Source: Escherichia phage Dewey. Taken from it: a DNA stretch of 40,352 nucleotides. The stretch lies in the sequence record PQ850600.1; one strand, given 5' to 3'. The notes beneath the pieces are model-generated. The model was given only the letters and a program-made list of their open reading frames with translations, did not search any database and was not told the origin of the DNA. Below, in pieces: positions 1 through 40,352 of this stretch (the first letter of the stretch is position 1; each line of letters begins with the position of its first letter). The position numbers and the translations under genes are program-made.

Positions 1-489
1 ATGGCAGCACCAAAGGGCAACCGATTTTGGGAGGCCCGCAGTAGTCATGGGCGAAATCCTAAATTCGAATCGCCTGAGGCGCTGTGGGCTGCTTGTTGTG
101 AATACTTCGAGTGGGCTGATGATAACCCGCTATGGGAGGGTAAGGTATTTTCATATCAGGGAGAAATAATTAAGGCTAATGTCCCTAAGATGCGAGCCAT
201 GACTATTTCAGGATTGTGCACCTTCCTTGATATCACCAGGCAAACATGGGGAACCTTCCGGTCAATGGAAGGTTTTTCTGACGTCACATCACGAGCGGAA
301 GACATCATCTACGACCAGAAATTCTCTGGCGCAGCCGCTGACCTTCTCAACGCTAATATCATCGCCCGTGATTTGGGCCTCAAAGAGCAGTCGCAAGTTG
401 AAGACGTGACACCTGATAAGGGAGATCGCGATAAGCGACGCTCTCGCATCAAGGAGCTATTCAACCGTGGAACTGGACGCGATTCTTGA
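1..489 (+). CDS. terminase small subunit (P22 gp3-like)
   Basis: 162 aa; N-terminus [38 protein letters not shown] and C-terminus match P22 gp3 as I recall it; 3' end overlaps the large terminase start. Confidence 0.9.
268..289 (+). other. candidate pac site region (diverged homolog of the P22 pac position inside the small terminase gene)
   Basis: GAAGGTTTTTCTGACGTCACAT lies at the codons corresponding to P22 pac (GAAGACTTATCTGAGGTCGTTA, from memory); about 14/22 identical. Confidence 0.3.
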
Positions 490-1966
490 TAACCTGAGCG
501 ACGAAGAGCAAATCGAATTGCTCGAGCTACTCGAAGAAGAAGAGAGCTACCGGAACACACACCTGCTATATGAATTTACGCCATACAGCAAACAGCGTGA
601 GTTCATCGACGCCGGGCATGACTATCCAGAGCGCTGTTTTATGGCTGGTAACCAGCTTGGTAAGTCATTTACTGGTGCTGCTGAAGTCGCGTTTCACCTT
701 ACCGGGCGTTATCCGGGCACAAAAGGCTATCCTGCTGATGGTAAATATGGCGGTGAGTGGAAAGGTAAGCGTTTCTATGAGCCTGTTGTTTTCTGGATTG
801 GTGGCGAGACAAACGAGACTGTAACCAAAACGACTCAACGCATCCTGTGCGGTCGTATCGAAGAGAATGATGAGCCTGGCTACGGTTCCATACCGAAAGA
901 AGACATCATTAGCTGGAAGAAGTCTCCTTTCTTTCCGAACCTTGTTGATCATCTTCTGGTTAAGCATCACACGGCTGATGGCGTTGAAGATGGCATTTCA
1001 ATCTGCTACTTCAAGCCATACTCGCAAGGCCGTGCTCGCTGGCAGGGTGACACAATCCACGGCGTGTGGTTTGACGAAGAGCCACCATACAGCATTTATG
1101 GCGAAGGTCTTACCCGTACCAACAAATACGGGCAATTCTCAATTCTGACGTTTACCCCGCTGATGGGGATGTCTGACGTTGTTACCAAGTTCCTGAAGAA
1201 TCCCAGCAAGTCGCAGAAAGTGGTCAACATGACCATCTATGACGCAGAGCACTACACCGACGAGCAGAAAGAGCAAATCATCGCATCCTATCCCGAGCAC
1301 GAGAGAGAGGCGCGTGCTCGCGGTATTCCTACGATGGGTAGCGGTCGAATCTTCCAGATACCGGAAGAGACGATTAAGTGCCAGCCGTTCGAGTGTCCTG
1401 ATCACTTCTACGTAATTGGCGGGATGGATTTCGGATGGGATCACCCACAGGCGCAGGTTCAGCTTTGGTGGGATAAGGACGCAGACACAATCTACGTTTC
1501 ACGCGTGTGGAAGGCGAAAGAAAAAACAGCCGTTCAGGCATGGGGAGCTGTTAAATCATGGGCGCATAAAGTGCCAACAGCATGGCCTCATGACGGAAAT
1601 CAGCACGAGAAGGGCGGCGGTGAGCAGCTCAAAGGGCAGTATGCAGATGCTGGTTTTATGATGTTGCAGGAGCATGCGACATGGCCTGATGGCGGTAACG
1701 CGGTGGAGCCTGGCATCACTGAATTGCGCGACATGATGCTCGATGGTCGCTTCAAAGTATTCAACACCTGTGAGCCATTCTTTGAGGAGTTCCGCCTCTA
1801 TCACCGTGATGAAAACGGGAAGATCGTCAAGCTTAACGACGACGTTCTCTCAGCTGTTCGCTATGCATACATGATGCGCCGCTTCGCCAAAATGATGCGC
1901 GACATCAAAAAACCAAAAGAGAAAAAGATACCAGCCCCAATCAGGCCCATCGCACGGAGAACTTAA
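467..1966 (+). CDS. terminase large subunit (P22 gp2-like)
   Basis: 499 aa; [25 protein letters not shown]... closely matches P22 gp2 over its length; follows small terminase. Confidence 0.95.
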
Positions 1967-4132
1967 ATGGCCGACGAAAACAGACTCAATTCCATTCTGT
2001 GTAAGTTTGACGCAGACTGGATGGCGAGCGATGAAGCCAGAACCGAGGCGACAAATGACCTGTATTTTAGCCGAGTGTCGCAATGGGATGACTGGCTATC
2101 AAACTACACCACCCTGCAATATCGAGGACAATTCGATGTTGTCCGCCCGGTGGTCAGGAAACTGGTCGCAGAGATGCGCCGGAACCCTATCGACGTTCTC
2201 TTCCGACCCAAAGACGGCGCTAATCCTGATGCTGCCGATGTGCTGATGGGGATGTATCGTACTGATATGCGCCATAACACGGCAAAAATTGCCGTTAACG
2301 TTGGCGTTCGTGAGCAGATAGAGTCCGGCGTTGGTGCATGGCGTCTGGTCACCCAGTACGAAGACAACGACCCAACAAGCAACAATCAGGTAATCCGACG
2401 CCTGCCAATCCATGAAGCCTGCTCACACGTCATATGGGACGCCAACAGCAAGCAGATGGATAAGAGCGACGCTAAGCACTGCACGGTGATTAACGCTTTG
2501 TCACGCAATGGCTGGAAAGAGTTCGCAGAGGATTACGGTATTGATCCTGACACCTTGCCATCTTTCCAGAATCCGAACGATACATGGCTGTTTCCGTGGG
2601 TATCGAATGATGTCGTCTACGTCGCTGAGTATTACGAGGTCGAAGAGAAGAAAGAGAAAGTCTTCATCTACCGCGACCCGCTGACAGGTGAGCCGGTCAG
2701 CTATTACCAGCAGGATATCAAAGACGTCATCGACGACCTGGCTAATCGTGGATTCATTAAGGTAGCAGAGCGCAAGGTGAAGCGTCGGCGTGTGTATAAG
2801 TCGATCATCACCTGCACGCAGATACTGAAAGACCGCGAGAAGATAGCCGGAGAGCATATTCCAATCGTTCCAGTGTATGGCGAATGGTCATTCGCTGGTG
2901 ACAAGGAGTGCTACGAAGGAGTGGTAAGGCTGACGAAAGACGGTCAACGCCTTCGTAACATGATCATGTCGTTCAACGCCGATATTGTTGCTCGTTCACC
3001 GAAGAAGAAACCGACCTTCTTCCCTGAGCAAATCGAAGGCTACGAATACATGTACGGTGGAAATGATGACTATCCGTACTATCTGCAGAACAGGACCGAT
3101 GAAAACGGTAACGACCTGCCGATTGGTCCAATCTCCTACATGGAAAACCCTGAAGTGCCGCAAGCCAACGCTTACATGCTTGAGGCTGCCACCAACGCAG
3201 TGAAAGAGGTGGCTAGTCTTGGCGTGGATGCGCAGGCGGCAAATGGTCAGGTCGCTTTCGATACCGTCAATCAACTGAACATGCGGGCAGACCTTGAGAC
3301 ATACGTGTTTCAGGATAACCTGGCTACCGCAATGAGACGTGATGGCGAGATTTATGCCTCAATGGTCAACGATATTTATGACGTTCCTCGTCATGTAACG
3401 CTGACACTTGAAGATGGAAGCGAGAAAGACGTTCAACTCTATGCGCAAGTTGTCGATTACCAGTCCGGCAATGTGGTCACACTCAACGACATTCGTGGTC
3501 GCTATGAGTGCTATACGGACGTTGGGCCATCCTTCCAGAGCATGAAGGAACAGAACCGCGCAGAGATTCAGGAGTTACTCACCAAGGTTCCGCAAGGTAC
3601 TCCAGAGTTCCAGATGCTGATGCTGCAATACTTCACGCTGCTTGACGGTAAAGGCGTCGAGATGATGCGAGAGTACGCGAACAAGCAACTGGTGATGATG
3701 GGGCTGAAGAAACCAGAAACACCTGAAGAGATGGAGATGGTGCAGCAGGCACAACAACAGCCGCAGCAGCCATCAGCAGAGCAAATTCAGGCGCAGGGTA
3801 TCCTTCTGCAAGGTCAGGCTGAATTGCTCAAGGCAGAGAACCAACAGGCGCAGATTCAGGTTGAAGCTGCCAAGGTTGAAGCTCAAAACCAACTCAACGC
3901 CGCGAAGATTGCAGAAATCTTCAACAATATGGACCTCGACAAGCAGGCAGAACTGCGTGAGTACCTCAAGCTCGTAGGTCAATTCCAGCAACAGCGCAGC
4001 AAAGATGCTCGCGCTAACGCTGAGCTGCTTCTTAAAGATGCAGACCAGACTCATTCACAACGCATGGATTTCGCGAATCTTATGCGTCAAGTTCAAATCC
4101 CCTCCGGCGGAGTAGCCGAGACACCTCAATAA
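1967..4132 (+). CDS. portal protein (P22 gp1-like)
   Basis: 721 aa; [11 protein letters not shown]...[51 protein letters not shown] matches P22 portal; Gln-rich C-terminal barrel region. Confidence 0.95.
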
Positions 4133-4145
4133 GAGAGAGTTAACC

Positions 4146-39559: not shown

Positions 39560-39847
39560 ATGGAACAACAAGAATTACCTCGCTGGCAGTGTCACAAGCA
39601 GGTATGGGCGTTAAAGATTCGACATATCGACCACAAACCAAACCCAGACCTTTCTGGCGTGTCGGGCGCATCAAGCTATGGGGCCACCATTCACCCGGAA
39701 GATGGCACATACGCGCCATTCGATGTAAGCCCTGAGTACGTTAACAAACATCAACCGGTCGCTGGCGGGTATTACGTTGTGTATGAGGATGGCTATGCAT
39801 CCTTCTCTCCTGCTGACTCGTTTGAATCCGGGTACACGAAAATCTGA
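39560..39847 (+). CDS. hypothetical protein (second gene of three-gene module)
   Basis: 95 aa; starts 3 nt after the upstream stop. Confidence 0.5.
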   Translation: MEQQELPRWQCHKQVWALKIRHIDHKPNPDLSGVSGASSYGATIHPEDGTYAPFDVSPEYVNKHQPVAGGYYVVYEDGYASFSPADSFESGYTKI

Positions 39848-39858
39848 CGGAGCCTCTG

Positions 39859-40347
39859 ATGACTACAGTCGCATGGGATGGAAAGACACTGGCATCTGAC
39901 ACCCAGGCATCAACTGGCAGTGTCGTTTGCTCCCTTTCTGAACAGAAGATATACACCCCGCCAGAGTCAGGTTGGGAGATTTACGGAAGCAAAGTCCTTG
40001 CCTTCGGTTGCTCTGGTGACTGCGGCGCAGAGATGGAATTACAGGATCTGCTTAAGCACAACCTCACGTATGCCTCCGAGTTCATGCCGACATTCTCCTT
40101 CACGGCTCTGGCTATCATCGGTGCTGGGCGAGCATACATCATCACCAAAGAGAAAGGCGAAACGCGGGCGAGCATATCGCTACAGGTTGAGCCATACGCA
40201 ATAGGCAGTGGCGACCTGATCGCGCGCACTGCCATGCACTGTGGCAAAAATGCGAGAGAAGCGGTACAAGTCGCAATTGATCTTGACTGCTATTCCGGCG
40301 GCAGCGTTGATTCGTTCCCCGCTGGGAAGCAAACAGAAGGGAAATAA
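39859..40347 (+). CDS. HslV-like Ntn-hydrolase (proteasome beta-subunit-like peptidase)
   Basis: 162 aa; begins M-TTVAWDGKTLASDTQ (Thr directly after Met, as in HslV TTIVSVRR...); later AIGSGD and GAGRAYIIT segments align with HslV GSGG/IITG regions. Confidence 0.6.
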   Translation: MTTVAWDGKTLASDTQASTGSVVCSLSEQKIYTPPESGWEIYGSKVLAFGCSGDCGAEMELQDLLKHNLTYASEFMPTFSFTALAIIGAGRAYIITKEKGETRASISLQVEPYAIGSGDLIARTAMHCGKNAREAVQVAIDLDCYSGGSVDSFPAGKQTEGK

Positions 40348-40352
40348 TCAAT

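Follow-up and report, generated by a model that had tools for sequence, protein, structure and literature searches.

In P22-like phages the morphogenetic genes correspond one-to-one with those of P22 and the early operons are highly mosaic, and the late antitermination genes of P22, epsilon34 and the prophage Para1 are 99% identical to lambda Q (PMC2629481). The genus Lederbergvirus is described as having lambda-like lysogeny control and high mosaicism, and its members Dewey, Louie and CurroJimenez have been placed as the sister group of P22 (BASEL paper, PMC11990801). Huey, Dewey and Louie were reported as three O16-dependent, turbid-plaque Lederbergvirus isolates with genomes of 38,575, 40,352 and 38,040 base pairs (bp), respectively, obtained as circular assemblies that were re-oriented after annotation (PMC12243541). 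Here we analyse the sequence record PQ850600.1 of Escherichia phage Dewey, a stretch of 40,352 bp with a guanine-cytosine (GC) content of 48.0% that we refer to as the window; the Dewey genome appears to be published already. We put the probability at roughly 93% that the window comprises the entire genome of a P22-like lambdoid phage of E. coli (Lederbergvirus), temperate and short-tailed, and that this genome is presented as a linear permutation of a circle opened at the small-terminase ATG and is mosaic from the usual module exchange among lambdoid phages.

A megablast comparison of both halves of the window with 50,697 phage records returned matches to hundreds of lambdoid phages, none of which covers 80% of either half. 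The best-matching records are those of two E. coli phages of the genus Lederbergvirus, Louie (PQ850616) and CurroJimenez (Bas106; PQ850599), at 96-99% identity over 63-73% of the window, and both open at the same gene and base as the window. As a sequence-only reading of this DNA had stated, the window begins exactly with the A of the small-terminase ATG and ends 5 nucleotides (nt) past the last gene, whose stop codon (40345-40347) is followed by TCAAT. When the window end was joined to its start and searched in E. coli genomes, we found single unbroken matches, in chromosomal prophages, running from the last gene through the join into both terminase genes. Moreover, the circular phage replicon of strain 0H26 (39,448 bp) has the same 162-amino acid (aa) gene, 5 nt and the small-terminase ATG in succession, and the 41 nt read across this junction are base-for-base those of the window end and start. 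The start coordinate is thus a record convention on a circle and not a physical end, and the proposal that the record holds a complete phage genome is borne out. The gene map has the lambdoid early layout (int-xis, then N-cI-cro-cII-replication-nin-Q-lysis) with a complete lambdoid regulatory set, comprising N, nutL, nutR, cI, cro, cII, cIII, Q, PR' and tR'. Rfam (at gathering thresholds) and ARAGORN found no RNA families and no transfer RNA (tRNA) genes in the window, so the phage-21-type tRNA pair of Sf6 and CurroJimenez is absent from it. Neither strand of the whole window contains a Chi site (GCTGGTGG), which leaves no case for Chi enrichment.

All 13 of the P22 virion genes (3-2-1-8-5-4-10-26-14-7-20-16-9) are found at 1-17080 and in P22 order, as follows (aa identities to P22 are global; ORF, open reading frame):

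1-489, plus strand: small terminase of the P22 gene 3 type (Pfam GP3_package, 8e-31; 82% aa identity to P22 gp3)
268-289, inside the small terminase gene: pac-like site
467-1966, plus strand: large terminase, gene 2 (Terminase_6N and Terminase_6C; 92% aa to P22 gp2)
1967-4132, plus strand: portal, gene 1 (P22_portal, 6e-162; 78% aa to P22)
4146-5057, plus strand: scaffolding protein, gene 8 (Phage-scaffold, 2e-178; 85% aa to P22)
5647-6942, plus strand: coat protein, gene 5 (P22_CoatProtein, 2e-164; 72% aa to P22)
7017-7241, plus strand: small ORF in the position of P22 orf69 (assigned by position; 31% aa to the P22 orf69 region)
7219-7719, plus strand: gene 4 tail accessory factor or head-tail adaptor (P22_Tail-4, 1e-59; 61% aa to P22)
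7719-9137, plus strand: gene 10 head closure protein (Phage_stabilise, 5e-300; 93% aa to P22, 99% to HK620)
9137-9838, plus strand: gene 26 tail needle (76% aa to P22 gp26; the exact protein is found in E. coli genomes)
9838-10293, plus strand: gene 14 (93% aa to P22 gp14)
10296-10988, plus strand: gene 7 ejection protein (83% aa to P22 gp7)
10998-12329, plus strand: gene 20 ejection protein of a divergent type (phrog_2534, 2e-193; 35% aa to P22 gp20)
12330-14957, plus strand: gene 16-type DNA transfer protein of 875 aa (39% aa to P22 gp16; phrog_770, DNA transfer protein, over residues 108-835)
15182-17080, plus strand: tailspike, gene 9 (Head_binding PF09008, 8e-66, over residues 1-113, followed by a pectate-lyase-like domain)

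Rather than low nucleotide identity to P22 across the structural genes, we found 72-87% over 1-11143. The claim that terminase through tailspike follow P22 in order and in sequence therefore stands for the order and, to a moderate degree, for the sequence up to gp7 (61-93% aa), but fails in sequence for gp20, gp16 and gp9 (35%, 39% and 31%). The head genes (terminase, portal, scaffold and coat) are of the P22 type and not of the Sf6/HK620 type, to which they show 28-32% aa identity or none that is detectable. A homologue of the ORF in the orf69 position is annotated in CurroJimenez at 6397-6627, and gene 20 is 99% identical in nt to its counterparts in Huey, APC_JM3.2, Sf101 and IME10. The gp16-type protein carries an additional N-terminal lytic transglycosylase domain (Pfam SLT, 3e-25, residues 7-110); this fusion also occurs in Huey, Sf101, APC_JM3.2 and IME10 (99% nt), whereas gp16 of P22 and HK620 lacks it and the gp16-type protein of Louie does not match the SLT-bearing N-terminal part. 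The likeness of the tailspike to P22 gp9 (31% aa globally) is confined to the N-terminal ~117 aa, the head-binding domain, and the protein is 100% identical in aa to the Louie tailspike over 647 aligned residues. The Louie tailspike targets the O16 O-antigen (PMC12243541). We set the tailspike start at 15182 by homology, as this N-terminus lines up with the start of P22 and HK620 gp9. The ORF is open from 15086, 32 codons before that start, with an extension that resembles a signal peptide and a long form that sister records annotate; this upstream extension (15086-15181) probably reflects an annotation artefact. The gap between gp16 and the tailspike ORF measures only 128 nt and holds no immI region, and no O-antigen conversion genes lie between tailspike and int.

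The strongest likeness to lambda lies in the region of Q, the late promoter and lysis:

35003-35626, plus strand: Q antiterminator (207 of 207 aa identical to lambda Q; 98% aa to P22 gp23)
35669-35697, plus strand: PR' late promoter, TTGACT-17-TAAATT (27 of 29 nt identical to lambda 44552-44580; lambda qut begins there)
35738-35932, plus strand: homologue of lambda orf-64 (64 of 64 aa identical)
35841-35898, plus strand: tR' terminator, giving a short late leader RNA (58 of 58 nt identical to lambda 44724-44781)
36302-36625, plus strand: holin S with a dual-start motif (99% aa to lambda S; Phage_holin_3_1)
36609-37085, plus strand: endolysin R of the lambda type (99% aa to lambda R)
37082-37519, plus strand: Rz spanin (Phage_lysis, 3e-37)
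37281-37466, plus strand: Rz1, embedded in Rz, with a lipobox

PR' was also picked independently, at the same coordinates, by a promoter scan. In nt, Q is 97.8% identical to lambda, but since it is also 95.7% identical to P22 gene 23 it cannot discriminate lambda from P22. The stretch from the Q stop to the S start, which holds PR', qut, tR' and orf-64, is 98.4% identical to lambda and 52.1% to its P22 counterpart; S stands at 99.1% and 88.8%, and R at 95.0% and 53.3%, respectively. R has no protein match in P22, whose gene 19 encodes a different enzyme. Low identity to lambda across Q, S and R was thus not what we observed (95.0-99.1% nt), and the proposal that Q, PR', tR', S and R follow lambda holds at 95-99% in nt. 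It extends to Rz for the first ~100 nt only, the rest of the gene being of the P22 gene 15 type: although Rz is 69.3% identical to lambda and 90.9% to P22 gene 15 overall, identity in successive 60-nt steps runs at 97, 86, 60, 74, 60, 62 and 55% against lambda and at 73, 95, 90, 95, 97, 98 and 95% against P22 gene 15. From these profiles, a mosaic junction falls ~100 nt after the start of Rz; the Rz gene of Sf6 has an annotated "boundary sequence" in the corresponding 5' part.

The early control region combines lambda-like with other elements:

25711-25860, minus strand: small Kil-like ORF (80% nt to the kil region of Louie)
25845-25979, minus strand: cIII (Pfam cIII, 8e-30)
26165-27169, minus strand: three PL-operon genes of unknown function (phrog_2201, phrog_1273 and phrog_1636)
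27178-27504, minus strand: N antiterminator of the lambda type (Pfam N36, 1.5e-26)
27615-27644, minus strand: nutL (boxB GCCCTGAAGAAGGGC, identical to lambda nutL; boxA-like GCTCTTA upstream)
27685-27759, minus strand: PL-like promoter and three OL operator-like repeats (promoter-like site 27713-27685)
27787-27808, no strand: bidirectional hairpin terminator downstream of cI
27839-28498, minus strand: CI repressor (HTH_3, Peptidase_S24)
28507-28583, plus strand: OR operator-like repeats and PR-like promoter
28610-28825, plus strand: Cro, not of the lambda type (HTH_3; Pfam, 1e-12)
28835-28865, plus strand: nutR (boxB GCCCTGAAAAAGGGC, identical to lambda nutR; boxA-like GCTCTTA at 28835)
28945-29238, plus strand: CII, a chimera (Phage_CII, 8e-46)

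N is 88.9% identical in nt to lambda and 51.7% to its P22 counterpart, and its first 22 residues, the arginine-rich RNA-binding motif, are those of lambda N. With this motif and the nutL and nutR boxB sequences identical to lambda, the assignment of N to lambda was confirmed. The three PL-operon genes next to it are 99% identical in nt to CurroJimenez and Huey and had no PADLOC or NCBIfam match. The cI gene is composite: its 3' half, encoding the S24 C-terminal domain, is lambda-like (93.8% nt) and the N-terminal HTH is of another type, so that overall identity is 75.2% to lambda and 57.2% to the P22 counterpart, and the protein is 98% identical in aa to the Louie repressor. The operator-like repeats, three each at PL and PR, have the form TAGTAC-N5-GTACT and are unlike the 17-bp lambda operators, and cro shows 53.8% nt identity to lambda and 53.3% to the P22 counterpart. 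Lambda immunity specificity was not found here, as cro, the DNA-binding half of cI and the operators are all non-lambda; from these sequences we expect Dewey and lambda to be heteroimmune, and Dewey and Louie homoimmune. CII, which had also been said to follow lambda, does so only in its 3' third (93%). Its identity to lambda per 60 nt is 52, 61, 73 and 93% (72.4% to lambda and 69.4% to P22 overall); residues 1-50 are those of HK620 CII and near-identical to P22 C1, and the last 44 residues differ from lambda at three, leaving the first ~50 codons of the HK620/P22 C1 type.

To gauge how much of the window is shared with lambda, we aligned it by blastn and found 4,830 nt, or 12.0% of the window, with a main block at 34993-37330 that is 95.1% identical to lambda 43875-46235. 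In the same blastn comparison the fraction of their own length that aligned to lambda was 8.9% for P22, 8.4% for HK620, 12.5% for Sf6, 10.3% for Louie and 11.3% for CurroJimenez; thus, the lambda share of the window is typical of P22-like phages. We then painted the window by best match among ten genomes (lambda, P22, HK620, Sf6, Louie, CurroJimenez, Huey, HK140, mEpX1 and the 0H26 phage). Together these cover 36,844 nt (91%) of the window at at least 90% identity in more than 40 alternating patches, in agreement with the claim that the genome is a mosaic. Lambda is the best donor for only ~600 nt, and the best donors for the early region are Louie, CurroJimenez, Huey, HK140, the 0H26 phage and HK620. 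The description of the genome as a P22-type virion module joined to lambda-type modules is accordingly misleading, as every P22-like lambdoid phage, P22 itself among them, is defined by this layout. On the strength of these alignments, the patchwork is the usual module exchange among lambdoid phages and prophages and not a specific P22 x lambda event.

A literal hybrid, in which a P22 virion module received its regulatory, nin and lysis genes from lambda or a very close relative, would explain the continuous 2.2-kb block with 95-99% identity to lambda that spans Q, PR', tR', orf-64, S and R, and why the RNA-binding motif of N and the boxB sequences are the same as in lambda. Yet the lambda share is like that of P22, HK620, Sf6, Louie and CurroJimenez, Sf6 and CurroJimenez carry the S-R-Rz cassette too, at 96-97% identity, and no lambda likeness is seen in cro, the N-terminal half of cI, the 5' part of cII, the replication genes or most of nin and Rz. 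As it largely fails on the lambda share, the non-lambda early genes and the donor painting, we rejected this explanation, which we regard as highly improbable. An assembly chimera from a mixed lysate is no less improbable. It could account for the alternation of identity between Louie and CurroJimenez, 1-5058 being 99.7% identical to CurroJimenez and the next stretch nearest to Louie, and a single sewage sample yielded both Dewey and Louie. However, there is no long 100% stretch to Louie (identity is typically 97-99%), the genes that span patch borders are all intact, and triple plaque purification and a 452x circular assembly were reported (PMC12243541). The junctions also recur in independent genomes, the scaffold-HNH-coat arrangement in 20 E. 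coli genomes at at least 99% identity and the cII-HNH-O-DnaC block at 98.7% in the 0H26 phage, which has the junction of last gene and small terminase as well; the chimera was rejected on these intact genes and recurring junctions. That we are dealing with a prophage, integrated or defective, excised from a bacterial genome, as the near-identity of every module to copies in E. coli chromosomes might suggest, is hardly credible and was rejected, as attP is intact and internal (18638-18653) and not split into attL and attR, neither window end carries host DNA, the ends join into a continuous gene array, and the essential virion, lysis and regulatory genes are all full length.

Some points weigh against our reading of the window as a complete, circularly permuted genome of a temperate P22-like phage. 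One, a minor discrepancy, is that the published description puts the large terminase first, whereas the records of Dewey, Louie and CurroJimenez open with the small one. Another is the partial conservation of the 22-nt P22 pac site, of whose first 18 bases 15 are matched at 268-285 within the small terminase gene, so that the packaging start is a prediction and its exact site uncertain. Finally, all functions given for Dewey are predictions from homology.

Downstream of the tailspike, integration and recombination genes and a block of small accessory genes occupy the minus strand:

17320-18477, minus strand: tyrosine integrase of the P4/IntS type (Arm-DNA-bind_3 (DUF4102), Phage_int_M and Phage_integrase)
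18638-18653, no strand: attP core ATGGTGTCCCCTGCAG, between int and the TorI-type excisionase
18728-18928, minus strand: excisionase of the TorI/HkaC type (100% aa to HK620 hkaC; torI in E. coli prophage annotations)
18986-19153, minus strand: homologue of lambda orf lambdap35 (98% aa; 97% nt to lambda 29098-29361)
19312-23363, minus strand: ~12 small accessory genes of the ea region (PHROG matches all of unknown function; DUF2737 at 23199-23363)
23380-23694, minus strand: small protein, D5-like regulator in the annotation of relatives (99% aa to Louie CDS0029)
23706-24194, minus strand: Sipho_Gp157 protein of the recombination module (Pfam, 2e-37)
24172-25086, minus strand: RecT single-strand annealing protein (Pfam PF03837, 6e-32, residues 32-218)
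25089-25514, minus strand: Gam of the lambda type, RecBCD inhibitor (Pfam Gam, 1.5e-50; 63% aa to lambda Gam)

The integrase had been described as P4-like rather than P22-like, and BLASTP agreed with this: it matches P4 Int at 35% identity over the full length (~400 aa; E 3e-77) and has no significant match to P22 Int (E 7) or lambda Int (E 0.06). It is 99% identical in aa to the Sf6 and HK620 integrases and 99.7% to IntS of the K-12 prophage CPS-53. A P4-type integrase is thus the IntS type that is already standard in P22-like phages of E. coli and Shigella (Sf6, HK620) and known in CPS-53. The attP core ATGGTGTCCCCTGCAG is the same as the annotated cores of HK620 and Sf6, and its reverse complement corresponds to the final 15 nt of argW, a tRNA gene of E. 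coli, together with one base of flanking sequence. In the chromosome of E. coli ET776 (1486306-1500210) and in several other assemblies, tailspike, intS, torI and the early-left genes lie contiguous and unsplit at attP, although integration by such a system should divide a prophage at this core; tandem lysogens, another attachment event or an assembly effect are possible explanations of this contiguous int-xis arrangement.

The ea-region block matches CurroJimenez, Louie, HK140 and the 0H26 phage in patches. RecT in place of Erf, likewise noted before, was verified by the RecT domain match, and Erf was not found. The recT gene is 96% identical in nt to HK140, with the exact protein present in E. 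coli genomes, and the D5-like regulator gene adjoins RecT in HK140 and mEpX1 as well. The whole RecT-Gp157-regulator module is 96% identical to HK140 and is the one found in HK140 and mEpX1, with Gam beside it instead of P22 Abc1/Abc2. We recognised no partner exonuclease (Exo/RecE-type) in the module at 23380-25514.

Rightward of cII lie the replication genes and the nin region:

30063-30959, plus strand: O-like replication initiator (phrog_17247 and replication-initiation PHROGs)
30944-31807, plus strand: DnaC/IstB-type helicase loader (IstB_IS21, 2e-18)
31804-32094, plus strand: Ren-like small protein (43% aa to lambda Ren over 58 aa; weak MarR_2 match)
32180-32407, plus strand: DUF7301 protein (Pfam, 2e-21)
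32397-32822, plus strand: divergent protein of the NinB/Orf family (phrog_72, 3e-34; NCBIfam PRK09741, 4e-54)
32783-33346, plus strand: Dam-type N6-adenine methyltransferase (Pfam Dam, 4e-65; PADLOC orphan-methyltransferase models)
33343-33692, plus strand: ninE (33343-33525) and ninF (33522-33692) (92.9% nt to lambda ninE-ninF, 47.4% to the P22 counterpart)
34184-34462, plus strand: YbcO/DUF1364-like small protein (weak Pfam match; in the position of the HK97 gp66-type genes in HK140 and mEpX1)
34459-34821, plus strand: RusA Holliday-junction resolvase, replacing lambda ninG (Pfam RusA; 99% aa to HK620 rus)
34818-35006, plus strand: NinH (Pfam, 2e-24; 100% aa to HK620, 56% to lambda)

The initiator and the loader resemble neither O/P of lambda nor 18/12 of P22, the O-like protein having no match to lambda O or P22 gene 18. 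Tandem repeats at 30553-30594, inside the O-like gene, may be origin iterons. The nin genes had been thought to follow lambda, which is true of ninE and ninF (92.9% nt) but not of the others: ninH is at 56% aa, the NinB-like protein is remote, with no tblastn match to lambda or P22 ninB, and ninC, ninD, ninG and ninI are absent from the nin region, where the Dam gene, a NUMOD4-HNH gene (see below), the YbcO-like gene and rusA stand in place of the missing genes.

By homology with lambda and P22 we propose the following life cycle for Dewey. CI, with a lambda-type RecA-cleavable C-terminal domain and its own operator specificity, would keep PL and PR shut; after induction or infection, N of lambda specificity would act at nutL and nutR to antiterminate the early operons, and the chimeric CII together with cIII would establish lysogeny. 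The IntS-type integrase and the TorI-type excisionase would recombine the attP core with the 3' end of argW, and the O-like initiator and the DnaC-type loader would start replication at the repeats inside the O-like gene. Lambda-identical Q would then load at PR'/qut and read through tR' into the late operon, which encodes the lambda-type holin and endolysin, the hybrid spanin, accessory genes and the P22-type virion genes. The P22-type terminase would begin headful packaging at a pac site within its small-subunit gene, and the predicted O16-specific tailspike would bind the host O-antigen.

Four stand-alone HNH_3 or HNH genes were recognised by Pfam, two of which also carry NUMOD4 or AP2 DNA-binding modules, and GC content is low in three of them:

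5058-5579, minus strand: HNH_3 endonuclease gene (Pfam HNH_3, 4e-22), antisense to the late operon and flanked by the scaffold stop and the coat start
29260-30060, plus strand: HNH endonuclease gene (Pfam HNH, 1e-13), between cII and the replication genes
33685-34194, plus strand: NUMOD4 and HNH_3 endonuclease gene in the nin region (36.7% GC)
37703-38254, plus strand: HNH_3 and AP2 endonuclease gene, between Rz and a KilA-N gene

GC content is 37.7% in the gene between scaffold and coat and 48.0% genome-wide. An overlapping stop and start, TAATG, takes the place of the insert in P22, CurroJimenez and the 0H26 phage, and the first coat codons beside the insert are recoded; presence and absence thus vary at one exact site among close relatives for 5058-5646. 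The scaffold-HNH-coat insert is at least 99% identical in 20 of the 217 complete E. coli genomes that match the scaffold-coat stretch. Among phage records the gene was found in Louie only, the next best matches (below 50% aa) being in virulent siphoviruses, and the divergence between Dewey and Louie is ~0.4% over 4251-5750, around the insert, versus ~3% over 751-2500. As far as sequence can tell, the insert fits a mobile gene of the homing type. The cII-HNH-replication arrangement is also present in Louie and the 0H26 phage, and the NUMOD4-HNH_3 gene takes the place that roi has in HK620, HK140 and mEpX1. HK620 has no gene at the site between Rz and KilA-N, whereas phage ECP1 shares the Rz-HNH-KilA-N order, and an exact copy of the HNH_3-AP2 protein occurs in E. 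coli genomes. This last protein is also 41% alike in aa to the product of an HNH gene that Louie has beside RecT instead.

The right end of the window carries further accessory genes and, as its last gene, a proteasome-like one:

38269-38766, plus strand: KilA-N/ORF11CD3 protein, HK620 hkbK (Pfam; 100% aa to HK620)
38763-39020, plus strand: homologue of HK620 hkbL
39315-39557, plus strand: DUF2560 protein, P22 orf80/HK620 hkbM (Pfam, 1e-43; 99-100% aa)
39560-39847, plus strand: ORF of 95 aa between the DUF2560 gene and the proteasome-like gene (phrog_11049, 7e-42)
39859-40347, plus strand: proteasome-beta/HslV-like Ntn-hydrolase gene of 162 aa (phrog_1040), last gene of the window and 5 nt 5' of the small-terminase ATG on the circle

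The last-gene protein had no Pfam, NCBIfam or PDB sequence match, its likeness to HslV being at the level of the fold. An AlphaFold2 model (mean predicted local distance difference test, pLDDT, 91) returned 20S beta subunits, BPH and HslV as the top Foldseek matches, with a probability of 1.0 and template modelling (TM) scores of 0.56-0.68, and across 20 homologues the N-terminal threonine (T2), D14, K30, G116, G118 and D143 are invariant and S117 nearly so. The gene is in no other Lederbergvirus phage record, and its best phage match (49% aa) is in an Erwinia phage; it is carried by genomes of E. coli, Salmonella, Klebsiella and other enterobacteria, and lies directly upstream of the small terminase gene in E. 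coli P22-like prophages and in the 0H26 phage. To our knowledge, such a proteasome-like gene has not been described before in the genus Lederbergvirus. The 95-aa ORF beside it had no Pfam, NCBIfam or PADLOC match, and among the ten compared genomes it matches only CurroJimenez in nt (75%). A search of ten unknown or accessory proteins with PADLOC and NCBIfam found no defence system; the matches were to orphan-methyltransferase models (Dam), one weak model (the Ren-like protein) and an uninformative family (the NinB-like protein).

From the domain content and distribution of the HNH genes and the modelled fold of the last gene, we offer a tentative joint proposal that we consider rather unlikely to hold in full. 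The four HNH genes, especially the one between scaffold and coat, might be active homing endonucleases that spread in P22-like phages and prophages and contribute to the fine-scale mosaic borders between sister isolates, and the last-gene product might work as a protease that serves the phage during infection or in counter-defence.

Comparison with named relatives shows how these modules are distributed. Louie is 97.8% identical over Dewey 27592-32160, which holds immunity and replication, but has other types of tail needle, gp14, gp7 and gp20, another lysis cassette and other accessory genes after Rz, and an extra HNH gene beside RecT. CurroJimenez, 99.7% identical over Dewey 1-5058, has Erf, SSB and Abc2 where Dewey has RecT and Gam, a phage-21-type Q with tRNAs, and no HNH gene between scaffold and coat. 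Over 500-5057 Dewey differs from CurroJimenez at 0-3 bases per 250 nt and from Louie at ~3%, and beyond 7750 (within 1-9300) it is near-identical to CurroJimenez and about 6-8% from Louie.

P22, the type species of Lederbergvirus, shares with Dewey the virion gene order, the lambdoid layout, Q (98% aa), most of Rz (91% nt) and orf80, and 34.8% of the window aligns to it in nt. Dewey lacks the P22 immI region (sieA, mnt, arc, ant) and gtrABC, its int and xis belong to another family, and Erf, Abc1 and Abc2 are replaced by RecT and Gam. P22 has gene 24, the gene 19 endolysin and the gene 12 helicase where Dewey has a lambda-type N, a lambda R-type endolysin and a DnaC-type loader; the receptor-binding part of the tailspike also differs, as does gp16, which in P22 is without the SLT domain. 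Lambda shares Q, PR', qut, tR', orf-64, S, R, the N motif, boxB, the cI C-terminus, the 3' third of cII, ninE and ninF, and Gam at 63% aa, whereas its virion genes are absent from Dewey and its operators, cro, replication genes, most nin genes, Int/Xis, Exo/Bet and most of Rz differ.

Sf6, HK620 and CPS-53/KplE1 have the same attP core, integrases at 99-99.7% aa and a TorI/HkaC-type excisionase. HK620 further shares rusA-ninH, kilA-hkbL-hkbM and the gp10 to gp7 types, and Sf6 the S-R-Rz cassette, but both differ in the type of terminase, portal, scaffold and coat, in tailspike specificity and in immunity. HK140 is 96-98% identical in nt to Dewey in the RecT-Gp157-D5-like module and the Dam-ninE-ninF block, and mEpX1 has a DnaC-type helicase loader, as Dewey does. 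Both are siphoviruses of the Hendrixvirinae whose virion modules are entirely different (long tails), and they lack a lambda-type Gam at the RecT position, whereas Dewey pairs both.

The mosaic of Dewey is the ordinary, long-known architecture of P22-like lambdoid phages and brings no new biology; such mosaic phages have reportedly been described since the genome papers on P22, Sf6, HK620 and epsilon34. Dewey serves as a worked example in which a near-lambda Q-S-R region is a property common to the whole group and in which cII and Rz each hold a mosaic junction. The HNH genes in the late operon and the proteasome-like gene next to the small terminase gene are modest leads on homing-driven exchange and on accessory genes in temperate phages.

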